Shown here one piece after another: positions 10,411 through 58,541 of a DNA stretch of 64,000 nucleotides. The notes below the pieces were generated by a model. The model was not told where the DNA came from, searched no databases, and saw only the letters and a list, made by a program, of their open reading frames with translations. The stretch spans positions 14,936 to 78,935 of the forward strand of contig CAZFCQ010000010.1 in assembly GCA_964517845.1 (NCBI GenBank), given 5' to 3'. A program made the position numbers and the translations under genes. Position 1 is the stretch's first letter; every line of letters begins with the position of its first letter. The stretch is from an uncultured Thermoprotei archaeon (GTDB taxonomy: Archaea > Thermoproteota > Thermoprotei > QMSL01 > B3-G16).

Positions 10411-11745
10411 CTAATCTGAGAGTGTAGATTCACCTATTATCACTGTTGGTGTTAATACACTATACGAGGTCCATCTTGCATCATTCGCAGCAGTGAATTC
10501 CCTCTTGAATGATCTATATATATTACCAGCAAATGTAAGTTGCCTTAAGGGAGTCTCTATGTCTCCATTCCTTATCAAATATGGATTTGTTACAACTACA
10601 CTATAATCTCCTGTTACAGTGTTTACTGTATGAACACTTAACAGCATACCGTCTAGGAAAATTCCTTTATCTAATGATGATATTAACTTCTCTCTACTTT
10701 TACTTCCTCTTGAAACTATCAAATTAGTCGGCGATATGCCAGTACCAGCCCTTGTTGCATTACCTGTACTTCTAACGTTTTCTCGTCTAGCCGTATATGT
10801 ATTGTATAAGAATGACTTTAATACCCCTTTCTCAAATATTACTGTCCTTCTTCTAGGAACTCCTTCACCATCGTAGAGACTAGTTCTAATTCCTCCTGGT
10901 AGTGTTCCATCATCTATTAGTGTGAACTCTTTCGAGAAAACTTCTTTATTTCTCTTACCCCTTAGTGGACTTAATCCCTCTTGGACACTACTAGCTAAGG
11001 TAGCAGGTATTAAAACGTGACTTATTAGACTAGCAAAGATCTCTGGAGAAAGGACTACTGGTCCTGAGTATTTATCCTTAAAAGGTACTGCTTTTAATCC
11101 ATCTCTTGCTAACTTAATAGCTCGCTCTATCATTGGTTCGAATTCAATTACTAGACTTCTTGAAACAACATATCCATATCCTGTAGACTCTTTATTGGAC
11201 TCTTTACCTTTTACATACGCAAAAGCATGCATATTCGTTCCTTTATCCTCAGCATATAATCCATGGTTATTGGCTATAACCTCCCATGATATTCCTAGAC
11301 CTACTTCTGCTCGCGCAACTTTAATTCTATCATCATATTGCGATGCTCTTCCTACAAGTTCTTTAACAAAAGCTATTAGGTCTTGGATATTTAATGTAGC
11401 TAGTCCTTCATCATACCCCACCCAGGAGTGTATCGGCTTCTCAGGGTCTGGAAGTCCTTGCCAGAAGGGATCCTCCTCTGAAGCTTTTGCTATTTTAATC
11501 GCTGCCTTTATCGAATCGGACAATAATTCCTCGCTTAAGCTTGTTATGTATGTTATTCCTACTCTTTTCCCGATAGCCACTCTTATAGAGCCTTGTTCTA
11601 TAGTCTTACTCTCTCCACGTACCTCTAATCCTTCCGATTTAGCATTCCTTGTTATGCCTTTAGCTAGACATATCTCTATTTCCTCAGCTCCTAACTTTTC
11701 ACCATAATGTACTCCCTTTTCAACTAGCTTATCTAACTCACTCAC
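10411..11745 (-). CDS. PmbA/TldE-family metalloprotease subunit
   Basis: The sequence looks like the TldD/PmbA family but lacks HExxxH. It overlaps the upstream TldD gene by 8 nt. Confidence 0.8.
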   Translation of the reverse strand: MSELDKLVEKGVHYGEKLGAEEIEICLAKGITRNAKSEGLEVRGESKTIEQGSIRVAIGKRVGITYITSLSEELLSDSIKAAIKIAKASEEDPFWQGLPDPEKPIHSWVGYDEGLATLNIQDLIAFVKELVGRASQYDDRIKVARAEVGLGISWEVIANNHGLYAEDKGTNMHAFAYVKGKESNKESTGYGYVVSRSLVIEFEPMIERAIKLARDGLKAVPFKDKYSGPVVLSPEIFASLISHVLIPATLASSVQEGLSPLRGKRNKEVFSKEFTLIDDGTLPGGIRTSLYDGEGVPRRRTVIFEKGVLKSFLYNTYTARRENVRSTGNATRAGTGISPTNLIVSRGSKSREKLISSLDKGIFLDGMLLSVHTVNTVTGDYSVVVTNPYLIRNGDIETPLRQLTFAGNIYRSFKREFTAANDARWTSYSVLTPTVIIGESTLSD

Positions 11746-13129
11746 GTCTACCCCCTACCATTAACCTTGTTACTCGAAGAGTAGGTCCTCCAAGTCCTAC
11801 AAATGCCCTTTGACCCCATTTACCACATCCTCCAAAAGGTGAAGTAAATATTTCGACATCCTTTGAAGCTGCATCTACATATTTGAGCATTTCAAGTATG
11901 TTTCCGGCTAGGACTACATCTCTTACAGGCTCTTTTATTTCGCCATTTTCTATGATGTACCCTCTAGATGCAGTAAATGTAAATGTACCATCTAGGTTTA
12001 CTTGTCCACCTCGTGGATCATCTAGAAAAAGTCCTCTCTTAGTCTCACTAATTATTTCCTCTTTATTCCACTCTCCTTTATCAAAATATGTATTCCTCAT
12101 GCGTATTATGGGCTCATATCTGAAATCTTGTGAACGAGCATTTCCAGTACTTTGTGCACCAAGTAATGCTGCACTTTCTCTACTATGCAAATATCCCTTT
12201 AATATGCCCTTATCAACTAGAACTACCTTACGGGTTATTACACCTTCATCATCTACAGGAATGAAATATCCTCCATTAGTAACTATGCCTTCATCTATTA
12301 TAGTAACAGCATCGCTTGCTATTTTTTCTCCTACCTTCCCAGTTAGTGGCGAAACACCGCTTACTATATTGTCTGCCTCGCTTAAATGACCAAAACTTTC
12401 ATGAGCAAAGACGCCTGCTAGACGTGGGGCTATAATTACTGTTTGTTGACCAGGTGATGTATACTTAGCTTTAGCCTTTTCTAAGGCCTTCTTGTACGCT
12501 TTACTCCCTATTTCCTCTGGAGTTTTGCTTTTAAAAAGCTCTAATCCTTTACTTGCTCCTACAGTCTCTGCTCCATCCCCTGTCTTTCCATTTATTTTAG
12601 TTACTGTGAATGTTCCCAGACCTATCAATAGTGGTTTAAAGCAGGTACTATAACCTTCTATGTTATAGAACTCTATCAATCCATAGTATGCTGCATATCT
12701 TGAAGTAGTGCTAACTGCTTTATCTCCTCTAGCAGCCTCATATACTCTCTTTGTTAGATCTATCTTATAGTCCCATTCGACATTCCCAGGATGTTCCTTT
12801 ACGTTTTCTAAGGAAAACGATCCTTTGGAAGGTTCCTCTTTAGAAAACTTAATTCTTCCTTTTCCGATAGCTTTTGCAATACTGATAGCTTCTTTAAGTG
12901 CTTTAACTAACTCCTCTTTTGATAAAATAGTTGTTGAAGCGAAGCCTACTGAACCATTTATAACAACTCGTATTCCAGCTCCACGCATTCTAGTATGGCC
13001 AATACCAAGTATTCTTCCATTAACATATGTAAGGGACTCATAGATAGTATCTTCAAATCGTACCTCAGCATAATGAACTCCAAGGGATGTGGCCTCTCTC
13101 ATGATATATTCTGCCTTATCCTCGAACAA
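11738..13129 (-). CDS. tldD: TldD-family metalloprotease
   Basis: The HESFGH (HExxxH) motif is present, and the gene is paired with a PmbA-like gene. Confidence 0.85.
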   Translation of the reverse strand: MFEDKAEYIMREATSLGVHYAEVRFEDTIYESLTYVNGRILGIGHTRMRGAGIRVVINGSVGFASTTILSKEELVKALKEAISIAKAIGKGRIKFSKEEPSKGSFSLENVKEHPGNVEWDYKIDLTKRVYEAARGDKAVSTTSRYAAYYGLIEFYNIEGYSTCFKPLLIGLGTFTVTKINGKTGDGAETVGASKGLELFKSKTPEEIGSKAYKKALEKAKAKYTSPGQQTVIIAPRLAGVFAHESFGHLSEADNIVSGVSPLTGKVGEKIASDAVTIIDEGIVTNGGYFIPVDDEGVITRKVVLVDKGILKGYLHSRESAALLGAQSTGNARSQDFRYEPIIRMRNTYFDKGEWNKEEIISETKRGLFLDDPRGGQVNLDGTFTFTASRGYIIENGEIKEPVRDVVLAGNILEMLKYVDAASKDVEIFTSPFGGCGKWGQRAFVGLGGPTLRVTRLMVGGRRE

Positions 13130-14728: not shown

Positions 14729-16081
14729 ATGTGTAGATCTATGAGCAATGATAAGTTAAGTCCTAAGTGGTTCAGATCTTACAAGAAGCTAGTCTATTTC
14801 TTAGACAAACATGATAAAGATAGAAAATTTGCATTTAAAGGAGAGACTCATGAGAAATTCTTAGAGTTAAGAGAGAAATTCAGAAATGAATTCGTCAAGA
14901 GTGAAATAGGAAAGGAAATTAACATAGCTAGGCGTTGGGTTCTAAGATTCAAAGAAGAGCTTACTGTTACTAAAGAAGTGCTCAACATCAAGGGTATATC
15001 TTTATCTAAGGAACTGCGAGATTTTGTAGAAGACCCCTTTTCACACTTAAAGAAGAAAATATTTAACTATATGTATGATCTGCTAAGAGGTAAGATAGAT
15101 ATTGATTCCTTTAAACGTAGCGCTAGCGCTGCTGTAAAGACATCCTTCAGAACTAACTTGAGAAATTTATATCAATGTTGGGTTCTAATATCCATCCTAA
15201 AGCTCCTAGGTAGTTTAGGAGCTAAGATCATTTATCCTGAACATGGTTATTTATCACTAGAGAGATTAGGGAAGCAAAAGACTGGTGGCATACCTCCTAA
15301 TTGTATAATGTACATTCCATCTGCTGGATTTCTAAGCTTCTTCTTAGAGGCTCCTAGACCTATTAGCTGGGAGGATTCAGAAGACCTAAGAAAAATATGG
15401 AGTCTATATACAGCGTTAAGGCCTGATATACTAGTTTACGGGGGCAAAGTTGTGGACATAGTCTCTCTAGAGAGTAATCCTCCGATTAAACGACCAGACA
15501 TAATAATAGAATGCAAAGAACTAACTGACTGGTATCTTCGTGTACGAGAAATACGAGGACCATTAACTAAACCACTCACAGCTGAAGAATGGCGAAGTAA
15601 ATGGATAAATGGTTTATGGGAAGGACTAGCCGATATACTAGGAGTAAAACGATCTGAGGCTATAACAACAGTAGAGGAGAGAAAGGCTATAAGGTTAAAA
15701 GATTTACAGATAGTAACCCTCTACCATTCTCTCTATCAGCCTAAATACATGGTAGTAATCTCGAGAACTAGGGTTCCAGAGGAAGTACGTGACTATCTAA
15801 TAAATCATGGTATCGACTTAATAGATAGTGTAGGCTTTAATTCTAAGAGACTTAAACCCTTAGTCGATAATATTTCATCTTTCGCCGGAATGGAAGCACA
15901 ATTCGAACTTCTTGAATTAAAAAGCGATATGCTTGATAAGCTACGTTCTTTACAAGAAATCCTAAGAAAGAAAAACATAAACTTGCCTATAGAGAAAATT
16001 ATCAAGTACTCATTACTTTTCGCTTTAGATAATCTAAATGATTATATGTCTTTCATTTCTAATAGGGAAGAATTTTCATAA
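14729..16081 (+). CDS. Hypothetical protein with PD-(D/E)xK nuclease-like core
   Basis: The 450 aa ORF contains LRPDILVY (D233), then about 27 aa, then RPDIIIECKEL (E261-x-K263), which fits a PD-ExK signature. I recognise no other domain. Confidence 0.45.
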   Translation: MCRSMSNDKLSPKWFRSYKKLVYFLDKHDKDRKFAFKGETHEKFLELREKFRNEFVKSEIGKEINIARRWVLRFKEELTVTKEVLNIKGISLSKELRDFVEDPFSHLKKKIFNYMYDLLRGKIDIDSFKRSASAAVKTSFRTNLRNLYQCWVLISILKLLGSLGAKIIYPEHGYLSLERLGKQKTGGIPPNCIMYIPSAGFLSFFLEAPRPISWEDSEDLRKIWSLYTALRPDILVYGGKVVDIVSLESNPPIKRPDIIIECKELTDWYLRVREIRGPLTKPLTAEEWRSKWINGLWEGLADILGVKRSEAITTVEERKAIRLKDLQIVTLYHSLYQPKYMVVISRTRVPEEVRDYLINHGIDLIDSVGFNSKRLKPLVDNISSFAGMEAQFELLELKSDMLDKLRSLQEILRKKNINLPIEKIIKYSLLFALDNLNDYMSFISNREEFS

Positions 16082-26684: not shown

Positions 26685-26978
26685 ATGGAGGGAAGAGTTA
26701 CGAAGACTATAAAAGTTAAAGTACGTTTTTATGCTAAGCTAAAAGACGAACTAGGTATTGATGAGATCTCTATTCCTATAAATGAGCGAAGCTTGTTTGC
26801 GTTGTTAAGGAAACTAAATACCATACTTAAGGATAAGTTACCTGAGCCTATAGACTCATTAATAGAAAATACACTTATTGCTGTTAATAATGAATTAGTT
26901 AGGGAAGATGATTTAAAAGACTTAACGCTTAATAATGGTGATATCGTGGATATAATGCCTTTACCTTCTGGTGGTTAA
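26685..26978 (+). CDS. moaD: MoaD-family beta-grasp sulfur carrier (C-terminal GG)
   Basis: The 97 aa product ends ...MPLPSGG. The gene is directly coupled to moaE. Confidence 0.8.
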   Translation: MEGRVTKTIKVKVRFYAKLKDELGIDEISIPINERSLFALLRKLNTILKDKLPEPIDSLIENTLIAVNNELVREDDLKDLTLNNGDIVDIMPLPSGG

Positions 26979-27402
26979 AATGAAAACTAAGGTTAATCAT
27001 AAGCTAGATTCGCTTAGTGATTTAATATCGGAAATTAAGAAGAAAAGCGATGAAATTGGAGCCATTATAATCTTTATAGGTATTGTTAGAGGTAAATCGC
27101 AGGAAGGAGAACAAGTGCTTAGATTAGAGTATGAAGCTCATGAGACTCTAGCCATCAAAGTGCTCAAGAACTTAGTAAAAGAAGTCATTAGTAAGCATAA
27201 TATAATCGATGGGATAGCTGAACATAGAATTGGTCAGGTTAAGGTAGGAGAAGATATAATGTACATCCTTGTTGCTTCAAAACATCGTAAAGAAGGATTT
27301 AAAGCATTGGAGGAATTAGTTGATAGAATTAAACGTGAGGTGCCTATATGGAAAAAAGAAGTAACGGAGAAAAGGTCCTACTGGGTAGAAGAGAGAATAT
27401 GA
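26971..27402 (+). CDS. moaE: Molybdopterin synthase catalytic subunit MoaE
   Basis: Blocks are IIFIGIVRG...LEYEAHETLA...HRIGQVKVGE...HRKEGF...PIWKKE. Confidence 0.85.
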   Translation: MVKMKTKVNHKLDSLSDLISEIKKKSDEIGAIIIFIGIVRGKSQEGEQVLRLEYEAHETLAIKVLKNLVKEVISKHNIIDGIAEHRIGQVKVGEDIMYILVASKHRKEGFKALEELVDRIKREVPIWKKEVTEKRSYWVEERI

Positions 27403-33682: not shown

Positions 33683-33757
33683 CGATATTTTAAATTACGT
33701 TTATATTAGAGAAAATATTTTTACCTGAAAAATCGTTCTTTTATTTGTGATTATTAG

Positions 33758-34729
33758 ATGAAGGTAGTAACAGTAACTTCGGGAAGCCGAGGAGGTACAG
33801 GAAAGACCACCATTCTACTAAATGTTGCCCTATTACATGCCTATGTAAGCTATATTAACAATAAGAACTACATACTCTTAACGGATGCTGAATTCCAAGA
33901 AGGTACTGCAACATATAGAATAAGCCCTGAACTCTCATTAAAATATAAAGAGGGGAAAATAAAGAGTCTAATAGATTTTATCCTAGACGAAGCCGATATA
34001 CGTGAAATAATAAAAGTAGCTGTCTTTAAGCCTGATAAAGATACAAGGTTTCCAGTACTCCTGACCTCAGCAATGACCTTACCTTCTAAATATAAGGCCC
34101 TCCAAAAAATGGATCTTGGACAGATTTTAGATAGGCTTGAACTACTTATCAAAGAGCTATCCAAGTTACTACCTATTGAAGCTATTTACATAGATATGCC
34201 TGCTACCAGGATACATGAAACATTCAGTATAGCTCTATTTGCTTTAAGTGACTTTATAATCCCTATAGGAGTACCTGATCCTACGTCTTTACTTACATTA
34301 TATACAACAGTAACAGCTATACGAGACTATATCAAGCCTCCTCCTACCATAAATGTAGCTGTAGTGAATAGGATCACCATTGAAAATTCCATAGAGCCCC
34401 ATACAGGAAAGAGATATACTGATCTCTATAGAAAGTTACTAGGTGTCCGTTTTGTAGTAGCTATTCCTGATGATCCTAACCTTAGTGCTACTAGTGCTGC
34501 AGGAATGATTGAGATATTATCAGAGAGATTAAAGAATGTAAGATCAATTAAACGATTAAAGAAACTAGCCTCTTATGTAATTGAACATGAATTAGCTCAT
34601 GTACCTAAGCGCGTCATTAACCTTGAATATATGCATAAATTCCTCTCCTTAGGCTATAAAACAAATGAAGAAGCTGAAGCAATCCTCTTAGCCTTATATC
34701 GTGCAAGGAGGCGAATACCTATTGAGTGA
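33758..34729 (+). CDS. SIMIBI-class P-loop NTPase, MinD/ParA/CpaE-like with deviant Walker A
   Basis: The Walker A is VTSGSRGGTGKTT, where the signature Lys of KGGxGK is Arg. The Walker B-like element is AIYIDMPA. There is a C-terminal extension of about 80 aa. Confidence 0.6.
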   Translation: MKVVTVTSGSRGGTGKTTILLNVALLHAYVSYINNKNYILLTDAEFQEGTATYRISPELSLKYKEGKIKSLIDFILDEADIREIIKVAVFKPDKDTRFPVLLTSAMTLPSKYKALQKMDLGQILDRLELLIKELSKLLPIEAIYIDMPATRIHETFSIALFALSDFIIPIGVPDPTSLLTLYTTVTAIRDYIKPPPTINVAVVNRITIENSIEPHTGKRYTDLYRKLLGVRFVVAIPDDPNLSATSAAGMIEILSERLKNVRSIKRLKKLASYVIEHELAHVPKRVINLEYMHKFLSLGYKTNEEAEAILLALYRARRRIPIE

Positions 34730-35093
34730 AATTACGTATGTACTAACGGCTATTATAATAATTACACTCTCTTTCAGTATCTTTCAAGGTACTATGCTCA
34801 CATACTTGAACATGAATCTATACGAGAAATATATGAGTGCGGTAGCTTATTTAATAAAGTATGAAGTTGAATATATATCATCAAGCAATATAGAATCAAG
34901 CATAATATTATACATATTTGTACCTCCTCCTTGTATTTTAGTTATATGTAACAATACGATATATGTTTATAAAAATAGAAGTCTCCTTCTAAGGCTACCA
35001 CTTAACGCCAATGTGAACTCTACTTTATCATTAACGTTATTAAATAGGGTAGTTATTAAGAAAACATTAGAAGGGGTGCATATAAGTGGCTGA
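34701..35093 (+). CDS. Membrane-anchored hypothetical protein (N-terminal TM, beta-rich remainder)
   Basis: The gene overlaps the ATPase stop. The alternative TTG at 34722 is preceded by AGGAGG. The TM segment is ITYVLTAIIIITLSFSIF. Confidence 0.5.
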   Translation: MQGGEYLLSEITYVLTAIIIITLSFSIFQGTMLTYLNMNLYEKYMSAVAYLIKYEVEYISSSNIESSIILYIFVPPPCILVICNNTIYVYKNRSLLLRLPLNANVNSTLSLTLLNRVVIKKTLEGVHISG

Positions 35094-35298
35094 AGAAATA
35101 ATTGATCTAGATGAATTGCTTAGGACACGTAAAGCTATCAAGAAGGAAGTTTCTTCAATATCCCCCAAAGAAGGAGACATTTATTCTCTAGTAGAAAAAA
35201 TTGTAAGAAAGGTACTTGATGAGAGGCTTATCTCTATTGAAGAGAAACTAGATAAAATACTAAAACTTCTTGAGGAGGTTAAGGATGAACATATTTAA
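35086..35298 (+). CDS. Small charged helical (coiled-coil-like) protein, hypothetical
   Basis: 70 aa. The GTG start overlaps the upstream stop (GTGGCTGA). The sequence has heptad-like L/I spacing. Confidence 0.5.
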   Translation: MAEEIIDLDELLRTRKAIKKEVSSISPKEGDIYSLVEKIVRKVLDERLISIEEKLDKILKLLEEVKDEHI

Positions 35299-35521
35299 TT
35301 TCCTAAAGAATCGAAAAAGGAAAAGTTCTTCCTCAGTTGAAATATATAAAAAAGGTACCACAAGCCTCATTCTTAGAGACTTCCTCTCCTCTCTGAAGAA
35401 GATAAGAAAAGAAGATGAATATGCTCTCGAAATAGATGACTCTGATGAAATGGAGGAAATTACGGAAGATGTAGAAAGCTTTATGCATAAGTTGATAGAG
35501 TCGTTACATGAGGACGATTAA
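35285..35521 (+). CDS. Small protein with amphipathic basic N-terminus (MNIFNFLKNRKRK) and acidic C-terminus; MinE-MTS-like
   Basis: The ATG at 35285 is preceded by GAGGAGG and overlaps the upstream stop. The N-terminus resembles E. coli MinE MALLDFFLSRKK. Confidence 0.45.
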   Translation: MNIFNFLKNRKRKSSSSVEIYKKGTTSLILRDFLSSLKKIRKEDEYALEIDDSDEMEEITEDVESFMHKLIESLHEDD

Positions 35522-35564
35522 TATATTAGAGTAAATTTCGATTAAATTAAAACAGGCGTGGTAA

Positions 35565-35870
35565 ATGGTCCGTTTAAAGATATCGCAAATTAAATCAGGT
35601 ATGGAGAATATAGAAGTAGAAGGAGAAATTATCAGCATAACTAGTCCTCGTCAAGTTTATACGAAATATGGTCCTGCAAAGGTAGCTACTGCTATTCTCC
35701 GTGATGAAACAGGAAGTATCAGGCTAGTTTTATGGAGAGGACAAATAGACAGAGTACGTAGAGGAGATTATATTCGTATAACTGATGCCTATACGCGGGA
35801 ATTCCGTGGTAATCTTGAATTGTATATAAGTCGTAGTGGTAAAATAATAGTGATACGCCGTTATAGATGA
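35565..35870 (+). CDS. Single OB-fold nucleic-acid-binding protein (SSB/RPA-like)
   Basis: NIEVEGEIISI...ATAILRDETGSIRLVLWRGQ...GDYIRITDAY...G.LEL is the classic OB anticodon-type pattern. Confidence 0.7.
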   Translation: MVRLKISQIKSGMENIEVEGEIISITSPRQVYTKYGPAKVATAILRDETGSIRLVLWRGQIDRVRRGDYIRITDAYTREFRGNLELYISRSGKIIVIRRYR

Positions 35871-36634
35871 TACCTGAGCATTCTCGAAATCTCCTCTGGT
35901 TCCCAATAAGACCTAAAACTCATATCTCCTATAGAAACTATAGCTATTGTACTCATGTAGTGTTCTTCCTTATAATGTGGAGTGTATATCTCTACTTTTA
36001 CTTCGCTCTTTGCGCTCTCTACAAGTAGCATTAATGTAATTGCTATACGTATAGTACATCTAATGAACTCCGTAAGTTCTCCTAAATCTGAAGGAAGCAT
36101 ATTACTACTAGGTATTCCAATAACCTCTCCCTCATACCACGGTGCGAAATACGAGAACCATACACCTTTCTTATTATCAACTACTATCCTTTCACCTAAT
36201 TCCCTTTCTGTCGTAGCAAGATCTACCCAATAATTAGTCCTACTTGATAGAAAGTATAACCAACTGGAGATTCTGAGCAAGGAAATAGTTCCCCAGATTC
36301 CTGCATAAGGAATTCTCAAGCATGTTACTCTAATGTTATCTCCTTCCTTTAAGACGCTGATACTAGTTAACGTGTCAAACTGAAGTCTTCTCTCCTTTCT
36401 TTTAATTACACTAAGTACCTTATCGACTAAGCCTATAATAAGCCTCTCTTTTGCTACATCTTTTACAAAGTTCACTTCACGTCCCTGTTTGAGTATTATA
36501 CTCCATAATCTAGTTAATGGATCCTGGCGGAATTCTAAGGATTTATAAGAATGCGATAAACACTTCACTTTCTTAAAGATAATCCTTCCCTCTCCTTTCT
36601 CAATGCTTACTAGGGCATCTACTTCATCTAGCAT
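35861..36634 (-). CDS. Hypothetical protein (weak GalT/HIT-like N-terminal resemblance)
   Basis: 257 aa. EFRQDPLTRLWSII recalls the R.DPLTG.W motif of GalT-type nucleotidyltransferases. I see no HxH active site. Confidence 0.35.
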   Translation of the reverse strand: MLDEVDALVSIEKGEGRIIFKKVKCLSHSYKSLEFRQDPLTRLWSIILKQGREVNFVKDVAKERLIIGLVDKVLSVIKRKERRLQFDTLTSISVLKEGDNIRVTCLRIPYAGIWGTISLLRISSWLYFLSSRTNYWVDLATTERELGERIVVDNKKGVWFSYFAPWYEGEVIGIPSSNMLPSDLGELTEFIRCTIRIAITLMLLVESAKSEVKVEIYTPHYKEEHYMSTIAIVSIGDMSFRSYWEPEEISRMLRYHL

Positions 36635-37196
36635 AATGACTCTCCTGCTGGATAACTCTTCTTATTATGTGGAAATCTCTCTCCAATAGAATCTTAATCT
36701 TAGGGTTGTACATAATTGCAGCTGGATGATATGTCGGGATTAACGTAGTTCTTATCCCTAATATCGAAGCCCTATATATGTTACCATGGATATTACTAAG
36801 AGATTTGAACACCTTACCAATCTTACCTAATAGATACTGTGTAGAAAGCCTTCCAAGCGTTACTATTACCTTGGGTTTAATTATCTTTATCTCTTGATCT
36901 AAGTATGGACTGCAAAGGGCAATTTCCTTAGGTTTAGGCATCTTCCCTGGAGGTAGTTTACATTTAATTAAATTAGTCAAATAGACTTTATCGCGCACAA
37001 TGCCTATCCTTAATAAAAGTTCCTCCAAGATTCTACCACTAGGTCCTACAAATGGCCTATATCCATGGTTGCTTGGAGATTCCCCTATTATAAATAATCT
37101 AGCATCTAGGTCCCCTTCTCCAGGTACAGGTCTTCTATCTTCGCGAAGCCGTATACATTTACGACAATGTAATATCTCACAATATAGGACCTTCAT
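36624..37196 (-). CDS. udg: Uracil-DNA glycosylase, family 4/5 (Fe-S type)
   Basis: Blocks are CRKCIRL, FIIGESPS, GPSGRILEELL and YHPAAIMYN. I chose the start at the MKVLYCE ATG (37196). Confidence 0.8.
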   Translation of the reverse strand: MKVLYCEILHCRKCIRLREDRRPVPGEGDLDARLFIIGESPSNHGYRPFVGPSGRILEELLLRIGIVRDKVYLTNLIKCKLPPGKMPKPKEIALCSPYLDQEIKIIKPKVIVTLGRLSTQYLLGKIGKVFKSLSNIHGNIYRASILGIRTTLIPTYHPAAIMYNPKIKILLERDFHIIRRVIQQESHYAR

Positions 37197-37337
37197 AGCT
37201 ATACCTTTAGAAGGAAAGGCCCTTCTCGAAAACCTTAAAGTATGTACCTTATTCAACACCCCTTTTCTAATAAAGCTCAGATATGATAGCTTATAACTTA
37301 AACTCATTATGGCTCATTCACCTTTAGACTTTTTCTT

Positions 37338-37464: not shown

Positions 37465-37896
37465 ATGAAATATCTCTTAATACCCAACTCGATTTTATTG
37501 AATATAATACGTAATGTCCAGAGATCATATCCCTATGAAGTAGCAGGTGTTCTTTTAGGTTCAGAGTTTCGTGATTTTTATAAGGTTAGAACAGTTTATC
37601 ATTTCAAGAAGTGTCGCATCACTGAGTACTCCTTTAACTTCGATATTATGGAATGGATGCATGTTATCACTAACGGTAGACGGTCTGGTCTAGCGTACTT
37701 AGGGTTATACCATTCTCATCCAAATGCACATGCAATACCTTCAAATATCGATATTCATAGAATGATCGAGTGTCCAGGTGAAATCTGGCTAATAATCGCA
37801 TTACCTGAAGCTAATACCATAGAGTATGCAGCTTATACGGTATTAGACCCCGCTTCAGCGCTCTTAAAGCTAAATATCATAATATCTGAGAATTAA
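37465..37896 (+). CDS. JAMM/MPN+ metalloprotease (stand-alone)
   Basis: The motif is complete: EVAGVLLG (Glu) followed by HSHPNAHAIPSNID, which is H-S-H-x7-S-x2-D. Confidence 0.8.
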   Translation: MKYLLIPNSILLNIIRNVQRSYPYEVAGVLLGSEFRDFYKVRTVYHFKKCRITEYSFNFDIMEWMHVITNGRRSGLAYLGLYHSHPNAHAIPSNIDIHRMIECPGEIWLIIALPEANTIEYAAYTVLDPASALLKLNIIISEN

Positions 37897-40871: not shown

Positions 40872-41107
40872 TCTTTCTTTTTATCATCTACAAATACCTA
40901 TATAACCAAGAGTGTATGATGCCTAATTTCCATAGGTTATTAAGTGAATTATGAATGAAAGATGTACTTAATCATAAATCTACATCAGCAACCTACCCTC
41001 TCATCACTTTTCAGCATCGGGTTGGCTTCATCATACACCTAACTCTTCTTCATTTAAAGATATCGTTTTTACGGAACTTTAGTTTAACTTCTCATGAGGT
41101 AACTATA

Positions 41108-41728
41108 ATGTCCTCTAATAAGGAAGAACTCATGAAAAGACTTAAGGAAAGGATAAGGAATTGCAAGAAGTGCCACCTATGGGAAACTCGCACAAATGCA
41201 GTACCAGGTAACGGTAATCTCTATTCTGAAATAATGTTTGTAGGCGAAGCACCTGGTTATAATGAAGATGTGCAGGGTAAACCTTTTGTAGGAGCTGCTG
41301 GTAAGCTCTTGAATGAACTCTTGATTAGCATAGGACTTAAAAGAGACGATGTATATATAACTAATGTTGTAAAATGTAGGCCTCCCAATAATAGAGATCC
41401 TAAGAGCGATGAGATAGCCATTTGTTCTCCCTACTTAGATGAAGAGATCCAGATTATAGCTCCTAAGGTAATAGTAACGCTTGGCAGGCATTCTACAAAG
41501 TACCTTTTGTCAAAAGTTGGTTTAAAATCCATTTCGATAAGCAGAATTCACGGTAGAACATTTAATATCAGCTCTAATAATTTAAAAGTTCTCGTCATTC
41601 CTACTTTCCATCCTGCTGCAGCCCTCTATAATCCTCGTCTTAAAAATATCTTAGTCAACGACTTCAAAATAATAGGCTCTATAATAAGAGGTCCAAGGAG
41701 ACAGAAACTTCTTGACGATTTCTTCTAA
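41108..41728 (+). CDS. udg: Uracil-DNA glycosylase, family 4
   Basis: Blocks are CKKCHLW, MFVGEAPGYNED, GKPFVGAAGKLL and FHPAAALYN. I chose the start at the ATG at 41108 (MSSNKEEL). Confidence 0.85.
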   Translation: MSSNKEELMKRLKERIRNCKKCHLWETRTNAVPGNGNLYSEIMFVGEAPGYNEDVQGKPFVGAAGKLLNELLISIGLKRDDVYITNVVKCRPPNNRDPKSDEIAICSPYLDEEIQIIAPKVIVTLGRHSTKYLLSKVGLKSISISRIHGRTFNISSNNLKVLVIPTFHPAAALYNPRLKNILVNDFKIIGSIIRGPRRQKLLDDFF

Positions 41729-58463: not shown

Positions 58464-58541
58464 GGCCCCGTAGCTCAGTTAGGATAGAGCATCGGCCTCC
58501 GGAGCCGAAGGTCCCGGGTTCAAATCCCGGCGGGGCCGCCA
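58464..58541 (+). tRNA. tRNA-Arg (anticodon CCG), CCA encoded
   Basis: Manual cloverleaf: acceptor GGCCCCG/CGGGGCC, D arm GCTC/GAGC, anticodon stem TCGGC/GCCGA with loop CTCCGGA, T arm CCGGG-TTCAAAT-CCCGG. Confidence 0.9.

Follow-up and report, generated by a model that had tools for sequence, protein, structure and literature searches.

ATPases of the ParA/MinD family organise many bacterial machines. Among archaea, to our knowledge, only the MinD proteins of Haloferax have been studied; we know of no experimental work on such proteins in Thermoproteota, nor on any archaeal FleN/MinD-like ATPase associated with pili. A computational survey of archaeal type IV pilus systems found no predicted regulator more abundant than the FleN/MinD-like ATPases (Makarova et al. 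2016, PMC4858521). For the Thermoproteales, whose type IV filament systems evolve very fast, dedicated FleN/MinD-like ATPases were predicted in 2016 together with small alpha-helical proteins, and the genes for these ATPases often lie away from the core genes and share an operon with genes for small membrane or intracellular proteins (PMC4858521). A 2026 preprint (bioRxiv 10.64898/2026.04.22.720090) again reports that subsystem 4G and a MinD-like ATPase occur together. As a rule, the partners of ParA/MinD ATPases act through their N-terminal regions and the MinD-like members bind the membrane by C-terminal helices (PMC11407121); in Haloferax, MinD4 controls the placement of the archaellum (PMC11588486). 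Here we describe a four-gene operon (ORF1 to ORF4) carried by a 64,000-nucleotide stretch of DNA from an uncultured Thermoprotei archaeon (contig CAZFCQ010000010.1, positions 14,936 to 78,935; hereafter the window). From comparison with its relatives, we favor the reading that the operon serves a type IV filament (pilus-like) system as an accessory or positioning module and has become physically separated from that system's core genes, a judgment that we hold to be evenly balanced between right and wrong. A pilus or surface-structure localization module had been one of the two alternatives of the original prediction, a note made from the DNA letters and their translations alone.

The operon is a real, conserved unit. 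Its genes overlap at every junction, by 8, 8 and 14 nucleotides (nt): the TTG start of ORF2 at 34722 begins 8 nt before the end of ORF1 (TGA 34727-34729), ORF2 and ORF3 share GTGGCTGA at 35086-35093, and the ATG of ORF4 at 35285 falls within ORF3, 14 nt from its end. These coordinates confirm all three overlaps of the original prediction, and the four products, of 323/123/70/78 amino acids (aa), also agree with an independent public gene call for the identical contig. A GTG at 34701, which has no ribosome-binding motif before it, is an alternative start that would lengthen ORF2 to 130 aa. GGAGG-like elements stand upstream of ORF2, ORF3, and ORF4, in the window and in three orthologous operons. 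Such an element had been claimed for each start, but ORF1 has just a weak GTGAT behind an A+T-rich, TATA-like stretch and is probably the first gene of the transcript. Upstream of ORF1, a 15-nt motif, TATATTAGAGAAAAT, occupies positions 33702-33716; a copy with one mismatch, TATATTAGAGTAAAT, is found at 35522-35536, directly after ORF4 and before a gene for a single-stranded DNA-binding protein (SSB). The motif is probably a TATA/BRE-type promoter element (BRE, transcription factor B recognition element) common to the operon and the SSB gene, and its repetition before ORF1 and before the SSB gene suggests that the four genes form their own transcription unit.

To judge by its ATPase, the operon belongs to a small family. 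A search of 5.8 billion protein clusters with ORF1 returned five clusters, namely, ORF1 itself and homologs of 68, 60, 59, and 42% identity, and a filter-free hidden Markov model (HMM) search of 1.84 billion representatives gave 2 proteins below 1e-30 and 32 at or below 1e-3. Scans of genomes and metagenomes brought in remote relatives and a single additional lineage, at 38% identity; no new lineages came from the scan of metagenome contigs. The same four genes, in the same order and with overlapping or abutting junctions, were found in three other Thermoprotei lineages (loci L004, L016, and L017), whose ATPases are 59-68% identical to ORF1, so that the small ORFs are conserved beside the ATPase. 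Their products measure 323/123/71/76, 323/123/70/66, and 323/118/75/68 aa, respectively, and Shine-Dalgarno-like motifs precede the internal genes. All carriers of the four genes are uncultured Thermoprotei from hydrothermal metagenomes. L004 shares the flanks of the window, a hydrolase gene upstream and the SSB gene downstream. In L016, the upstream gene is another one (BNR-type by reading alone) and a gene resembling those for uracil-DNA glycosylases (UDGs) follows directly downstream, and in L017 the upstream gene encodes a 568-aa polytopic protein, FeoB-like by reading alone. Because the same four genes stand under differing flanks in L016 and L017, the block travels together as a genuine unit, beyond chance.

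By its structural model and its motifs, ORF1 is a member of the ParA/MinD superfamily of SIMIBI, deviant Walker A ATPases, with a MinD/ParA fold and intact nucleotide-binding motifs. The Walker A motif SGSRGGTGKTT (residues 8-18) and the Walker B-like AIYIDMPA (residues 142-149, IYIDMPAT) are present as the original prediction read them, and switch I is DAE (residues 43-45). Across the family alignment, the P-loop GGTGK[TS]T, the DAE of switch I, and a Walker B of the form YxDxPAT are invariant, with Lys16, D43, and D146 among the residues that never change. A family-specific C-terminal extension of about 60 aa ends in a conserved AEAILLALYRARRRIP. Within it, AE.ILLAL.R.R.R.P is kept in all homologs aligned; its hydrophobic moment is about 0.5, and its hydrophobic residues are contiguous rather than clearly amphipathic. 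Curated profiles do not place the protein firmly in any known family: ORF1 matches generic P-loop families only, and every match in Pfam and NCBIfam falls below the cut-off (AAA_31, 3.5e-5 and 24.3 bits against 27; CbiA, 19.2 bits against 25.4; minD_arch [TIGR01969], 7e-8 and 31.9 bits against 201.75; minD_bact [TIGR01968], 17.3 bits against 212.9). When the family profile was compared with all PDB sequences, the best match was MinD of Archaeoglobus (E=0.046). The AlphaFold2 model of ORF1 has a mean predicted local distance difference test score (pLDDT) of 64.6, the first ~170 residues being confident and the C-terminal third poor. Foldseek aligned this model best with archaeal MinD 1hyq (6e-10), Aquifex MinD 4v02 (7.5e-10), and the Chlorobium ParA-family protein 3ea0 (1.2e-8), with target-normalized TM-scores of 0.58-0.60; NifH, BcsQ, pNOB8 ParA, Soj, FleN, McdA, FlhG, and 3q9l were also matched. 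Such mixed matches place ORF1 in the MinD/ParA fold and do not discriminate the subfamily.

The original prediction had also remarked that Arg replaces the signature Lys of the Walker A motif. This is correct for the window, and the alignment restricts it to the four-gene clade: an Arg precedes GG in the window and in P0002-P0004, the ATPases of the other four-gene lineages, whereas P0005 and the ATPases of L009 and L020 have a Lys there. Since the relatives at 42% and 38% identity have Lys, the change, a conservative one, is clade-specific. Arg11 (window 33788-33790), at the signature, dimer-interface position of the deviant Walker A motif, is confined to the four lineages that possess ORF3 and ORF4, the relatives beside filament loci having Lys, and it may reflect co-evolution of the ATPase with these new partners.

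The constant partner of the ATPase is ORF2, an ortholog of which directly follows the ATPase gene in all six lineages of at least 38% identity (window, L004, L016, L017, L008, and L009). ORF2 begins with a hydrophobic helix (residues ~4-26) preceded by Ser-Glu and continues with a VPPP motif and predicted strands; its orthologs have in common the N-terminal hydrophobic helix, a VPPP/LPP motif, and predicted strands. No match was found in Pfam, NCBIfam, or the PDB, and a search of the 5.8-billion-protein set recovered only a truncated copy of ORF2 itself, because the protein evolves too fast for a word-based search.

It is the surroundings of the next-closest relatives that connect this pair of genes with type IV filaments. 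In L008 (also L001; 42% identity), in L009 (38%), and in L020, a fragment related to L009, the ATPase gene and an ORF2-like gene stand head-to-head with a second operon, adjacent to the filament genes but divergently oriented. The second operon encodes a diverged T2SSE-like ATPase with a Walker A motif (Pfam T2SSE, 4.9e-6 and 0.003), one or more small membrane-anchored proteins, and a polytopic membrane protein of ~490 aa in the TadC position; where the contig is long enough, several further small membrane-anchored proteins come next. A pilin with a class III signal (RRKG/VINISLPLII) is encoded beside the L008 cluster, beyond its far end, and another one (NRRA/FISLNYL; Pfam Class_IIIsignal, 0.0058) lies downstream of the ORF2-like gene in L009. 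Judged by this gene content, L008, L009, and L020 are type IV filament loci. Farther away in the family, two remote relatives with an SGxKGGTGK P-loop (L013 and L034) show the arrangement MinD-like ATPase, small coiled-coil protein, T2SSE ATPase (Pfam, 3e-13), and small membrane proteins, and those of Vulcanisaeta distributa (L021) and of a related draft genome (L035) have a gene for a T2SSF platform protein next door. Type IV filament genes are the only recurrent neighborhood in the wider ORF1 family.

A second tie runs through ORF2. With the HMM of the ORF2 family, the small protein whose gene immediately precedes that of the T2SSE-like ATPase is recovered in L009 (1.2e-5), L008 (0.008), and L020 (0.015), and alignment of ORF2 with these in-locus paralogs by hhalign gave an E value of 1.5e-4 and a probability of 51% over 91 columns. 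As the ORF2 family has matches within filament loci, ORF2 is likely a member of a filament-locus protein family. We considered ORF2 as an archaeal type IV pilin and rejected this, since it starts with M-S-E directly before the hydrophobic helix and matches neither Class_IIIsignal nor Pilin_N in Pfam. On sequence grounds, the better description is a membrane-anchored accessory protein associated with pilus loci. Members of the ORF2 family and its in-locus paralogs lack a leader peptide and usually have an acidic residue among positions 3-5, just ahead of the hydrophobic helix (starts MSEI, MNEL, MEIQEI, MNLTEV, and MDLSEP). Glu5 of mature bacterial type IV pilins comes to mind, although a class III signal for cleavage is absent.

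Some observations on the relatives stand by themselves. The filament locus of L008/L001 is very diverged and lies directly beside RNA polymerase genes (Rpb5/RpoH and Rpb2); atypical filament ATPases linked to RNA polymerase have been noted in clade 4D (Makarova et al. 2016, PMC4858521). Its T2SSE-like ATPase has 2 close homologs (99% and 45%) in the 5.8-billion-protein set and remote ones at ~26%. Among the remote matches, P0039 shares its contig with genes for efflux and ABC transporters of bacterial type, and in the 723-aa P0044 a MinD/ParA-like domain (Pfam CbiA, ParA, and AAA_31) is naturally fused to a T2SSE secretion ATPase, a Rosetta-stone hint of joint work of the two types of ATPase; the MinD-like part of P0044 has no specific relation to ORF1. 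Two distant ORF1 relatives of 320-325 aa (P0012 and P0017; L022/L023) are encoded ~5.7 kb apart on a single contig, SRR21418557_28694, in an island of unannotated small genes beside a CARDB protein and a MoxR-DUF58-VWA set. In P0012, the Lys of the P-loop is missing (GGGTGATT). This island may be another uncharacterized envelope system with MinD-like ATPases.

ORF3 and ORF4 are limited to the four-gene clade. The ortholog alignment of ORF3 is conserved at both ends (N-terminus MAExIxDLDxLL, C-terminus LEERLxxIExKLDKILKLLE), and the weak matches of this protein, to Pfam Seryl_tRNA_N (0.022) and to paramyxovirus phosphoprotein oligomerization domains (0.017), involve coiled-coil segments only. 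ORF4 has a conserved core, a basic run followed by SSV[ED]I..GGT[TS]..L[RK][DE]F, and a net charge of -13 over its last 40 aa. When HMMs of both were run against all fetched loci, nothing significant was found outside the four-gene lineages; both proteins are absent from L008 and L009, which hold the next-closest ATPases, and a 76-aa helical protein of L008 reached just E=1.3. Given that partners of ParA/MinD ATPases act via N-terminal regions (PMC11407121), the basic N-terminal segment of ORF4 is a plausible ATPase-interacting element.

Were the operon a module of a filament system, ORF1 would work as a MinD/FleN-type ATPase that forms an ATP-sandwich dimer, as other ParA/MinD ATPases do, with Arg11 in the role of the signature residue that is Lys in its relatives. 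We infer from this analogy that it would be held at the membrane by ORF2, by its own conserved C-terminal helix, or by both. ORF4 and ORF3 would be lineage-specific cytoplasmic partners that, again by analogy, might attach to the dimer, modulate its cycle of ATP hydrolysis, or connect it with the cargo. The module would likely govern construction of a pilus assembly platform (T2SSE ATPase plus TadC-like protein), be it the site, the timing, or whether it happens at all, on the model of what TadZ/CpaE, FlhG/FleN, and haloarchaeal MinD4 do for their own machines. In the organism of the window, the target would be a pilus machine encoded elsewhere.

Several results weigh against such a function. 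In the 64-kb window, tblastn and phmmer searches with the relatives' proteins found no T2SSE, T2SSF, or TadC-like gene, and a regular-expression scan found no pilin with a class III signal. The genes that do surround the operon are housekeeping ones (radical SAM, nitroreductase, creatininase, URO-D, hydrolase, SSB, and UDGs). The operon is beside pilus genes in none of the four four-gene lineages, so that the pilus link is one of guilt by association, through relatives of 25-42% identity, and the remote relatives L010, L011, L012, L014, and L015 stand alone. As for ORF2, it has no canonical class III signal (a [KR][GA] cleavage motif after a charged leader), its paralogy with the in-locus proteins is moderately supported by the hhalign probability, and its single-sequence structure model is unusable (pLDDT, 45). 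The descriptions "beta-rich" for ORF2 and "helix" for ORF3 come from that low-confidence model, in the case of ORF2, and from composition. Finally, homologs of ORF3 and ORF4 could be detected in the four lineages only, and their likeness to the small alpha-helical proteins of 4G is therefore one of analogy only.

These same results lend some weight to an autonomous ParA/MinD positioning module that has lost an ancestral pilus link and serves a non-pilus cargo, be it the division machinery, a cell-envelope complex, or another membrane assembly, with ORF2 as the membrane tether and ORF4 and ORF3 as newly evolved activator and adaptor. Detachment of the operon from filament genes in all four lineages with ORF3 and ORF4 agrees with it; ORF3, ORF4, and the Lys-to-Arg change occur together only in this clade, which is compatible with a functional shift; the basic N-terminal segment of ORF4 is typical of ParA/MinD partners (PMC11407121); and other remote relatives are found alone or in unrelated islands. 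However, no candidate cargo gene is linked to the operon, whose flanks vary by lineage, whereas filament genes are the sole neighborhood that recurs in the wider family and ORF2 is related to proteins encoded inside filament loci. We consider a non-pilus cargo rather unlikely, if worth keeping in view. We also envisage that a pilus-derived ATPase and its membrane partner were released and gained two new cytoplasmic partners, ORF4 as an activator working through an N-terminal peptide and ORF3 as a coiled-coil adaptor, to yield a self-contained membrane positioning system. We regard this as decidedly unlikely; if true, it would be the first such ParA/MinD system in Thermoproteota, with a MinE-like role independently invented by an unrelated protein.

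The other alternative of the original prediction had been a MinD/MinE-like patterning module, in which ORF1 would be the analogue of MinD and ORF4 that of MinE, the N-terminal helix of ORF4 lying on the membrane and its next segment stimulating the ATPase of a membrane oscillator. Part of the ground for it holds. ORF1 is structurally closest to MinD and has the conserved hydrophobic and basic helix at its C terminus, and ORF4 does start with MNIFNFLKNRKRK in the window, as had been read, and with MTSLFAFLRRVLRRK in L004 (hydrophobic moment, 0.84), so that the resemblance to the membrane-targeting sequence of MinE applies to these two orthologs. This amphipathic start (MNIFNFL) is present in only 2 of the 4 orthologs, those of L016 (MIKRKKSSVEI) and L017 (MIKGIKRRKHSSVDI; MIKGIKRRK...) having no hydrophobic face at the start, and we accordingly rejected a MinE-type N-terminal membrane-targeting sequence as a conserved trait of ORF4. 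Homology of ORF4 to MinE was rejected as well: ORF4 had no MinE match in Pfam at E<=1, its profile found no MinE among PDB chains at E<=10, and hhalign against E. coli MinE gave a probability of 0.6%. Moreover, the sister lineages L008 and L009 have kept the ATPase and lack ORF4; no MinC or MinE match was obtained in Pfam or NCBIfam for ORF2, ORF3, ORF4, or the neighboring genes; and no FtsZ-linked gene is present. Thermoproteota of this kind generally divide without FtsZ, which counts against an oscillator too. The MinE analogy fails on these tests, an oscillator is very improbable, and the operon does not reveal a MinE in archaea.

Segregation of DNA (the chromosome or an integrated element) in the manner of ParA/SegA, with one of the small proteins as centromere-binding partner, is extremely improbable: a PHROGs match to "ParA-like partition protein" (5.3e-5), the Foldseek matches to pNOB8 ParA and Soj, and the SSB gene that follows the operon in two of the three lineages with sequence downstream of ORF4 speak for it, but ORF2, ORF3, and ORF4 match no DNA-binding family (helix-turn-helix, ribbon-helix-helix, or ParB) in Pfam, NCBIfam, or PDB profiles, the constant partner ORF2 is membrane-anchored, repeat analysis showed no centromere-like array in or around the operon, neither integrase nor mobile-element genes were found in the window, the local G+C dip is slight, PADLOC gave no match, and the SSB gene is unlinked in L016 and apparently has its own promoter-like motif. 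Viral and defense readings were rejected, the PHROGs match being generic to ParA and the only one, and PADLOC reporting no defense match.

Table 1. Coordinates of the operon, of the ORF2-family members compared, and of other features mentioned in the text (window positions unless a locus is named)
Feature	Position	Strand	Description
ORF1	33758-34729	+	323 aa; highly diverged MinD/FleN-type (ParA/MinD superfamily) ATPase, by model and motifs
ORF2	34722 (TTG)-35093	+	123 aa; membrane-anchored, constant partner of the ATPase
ORF3	35086 (GTG)-35298	+	70 aa; charged, probably helical/coiled-coil cytoplasmic protein
ORF4	35285 (ATG)-35521	+	78 aa; basic N-terminal segment, acidic C-terminal half
Predicted promoter and 5' leader of the operon	33690..33757	+	A+T-rich, TATA-like TTTATATTAGAG; putative function, from sequence
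ORF2-family members compared at the start	window 34722-34740; L008 9550-9885 (-); L009 8797-9141 (-); L020 1134-1466
Diverged filament locus beside RNA polymerase genes	L008 4114-9888; L001 114-5888
SSB-like protein	35565-35870	+	101 aa; single OB fold
257-aa ORF	35861-36634	-	overlaps the end of the upstream UDG-like gene (36624-37307)
UDG, JAB, and MoaE loci	36624-37307 (-); 40955-41728 (+); 37465-37896 (+); 26971-27402 (+)
450-aa ORF	14729-16081	+
tRNA-Arg (CCG)	58464-58541	+	sole RNA gene detected in the window

Beyond the genes named above, the window holds those for a JAB protein, ABC transporters, GTPases, RNA cyclase, and KEOPS/Sua5. A pair of ORFs at 10411-13129 was considered, for their size, as a secretion ATPase and its platform protein and was dismissed, as the two look like TldD/PmbA-type proteins on reading alone. 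The SSB-like protein, encoded directly after the operon here and in L004 and not in L016, scores well below the NCBIfam equivalog cut-offs for SSB. The 257-aa ORF has no match in Pfam, NCBIfam, PHROGs, or PADLOC and has a counterpart of 247 aa at the same position in L004. One of the two UDG genes of the window is a confirmed member of the uracil-DNA glycosylase superfamily; the second is UDG-like via its L004 ortholog only. A JAB/MPN protease and MoaE are encoded in the window as well, and the MoaE region of L004 also carries ThiS/SAMP-like genes, which suggests a SAMP-type ubiquitin-like system nearby. The 450-aa ORF, without a Pfam match at E<=0.001, lies between a thiamine-biosynthesis-like gene (by reading alone) and a Bmp/ABC transporter operon. 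No RNA family was found in the operon region.

As a compact, translationally coupled set of four proteins (an ATPase, a membrane partner, and two candidate regulators), the operon is tractable for reconstitution, which could address stimulation of the ATPase by the partners, membrane binding, and interaction with the pilus assembly ATPase. It also illustrates how modules detach from core loci and gain new partners.

Compared with known systems, the operon has in common with bacterial MinD/MinE the MinD-like fold (1hyq, 4v02, and 3q9l) and a small partner with a basic and, in two lineages, amphipathic N terminus. It differs in that ORF4 is unlike MinE in every test, its start is not conserved, MinC is lacking, and ORF1 stays far from the minD_arch cut-off. 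FlhG/FleN, which set the number and placement of flagella, and Haloferax MinD4/MinD2, which act on the archaellum and the chemosensory array, are, with TadZ/CpaE, the nearest analogues in function among characterized proteins; they are MinD-type ATPases whose task is to place motility or surface machines, not the divisome, and FleN is among the fold matches of ORF1. Here, in contrast, there is no archaellum or chemotaxis context at the operon, the FlhG partners FliM and FlrA are unrelated to ORF2, ORF3, and ORF4, and ORF1 scores far below the cut-offs of the MinD family.

TadZ carries an N-terminal receiver-like domain before an atypical ATPase domain. ORF1, whose P-loop starts at residue 8, has no N-terminal domain of this kind; unlike TadZ/CpaE, it keeps the canonical P-loop Lys, has no specific sequence affinity to TadZ, and is not encoded in a pilus locus in the window. 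The likeness to TadZ/CpaE of bacterial Tad pili is that of a MinD-like ATPase dedicated to the localization or assembly of a type IV filament machine (PMC11407121), and the gene order of L013 and L034 (MinD-like ATPase, small protein, secretion ATPase) mirrors tadZ-tadA.

The closest counterparts are the FleN/MinD-like ATPases of archaeal type IV pilus systems, especially arCOG05608, of Thermoproteales clade 4G, and the broader arCOG00589. Both sides present a single-domain MinD/FleN-type ATPase of Thermoproteota, relatives whose genes neighbor those for a diverged T2SSE ATPase, a TadC-like protein, and small pilin-like proteins that evolve fast, and small alpha-helical cytoplasmic proteins that accompany the ATPase, often away from the core genes. 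By analogy, the operon fits the 4G description closely, with its MinD-like ATPase, membrane protein, and two small helical proteins apart from core genes. The listed members of arCOG05608, however, measure 234-237 aa against the 323 aa of ORF1, a comparison made by length listing; ORF1 has its conserved C-terminal extension and the Arg at the signature position; and ORF2, ORF3, and ORF4 have no detectable homologs outside the small clade. ORF1 is thus not demonstrably a member of arCOG05608. The original prediction had not recognized the operon as a characterized system, which stands as far as experiments are concerned, but the kind to which it belongs has already been described computationally (PMC4858521). 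The operon is a new, highly diverged variant of that kind of ATPase module.

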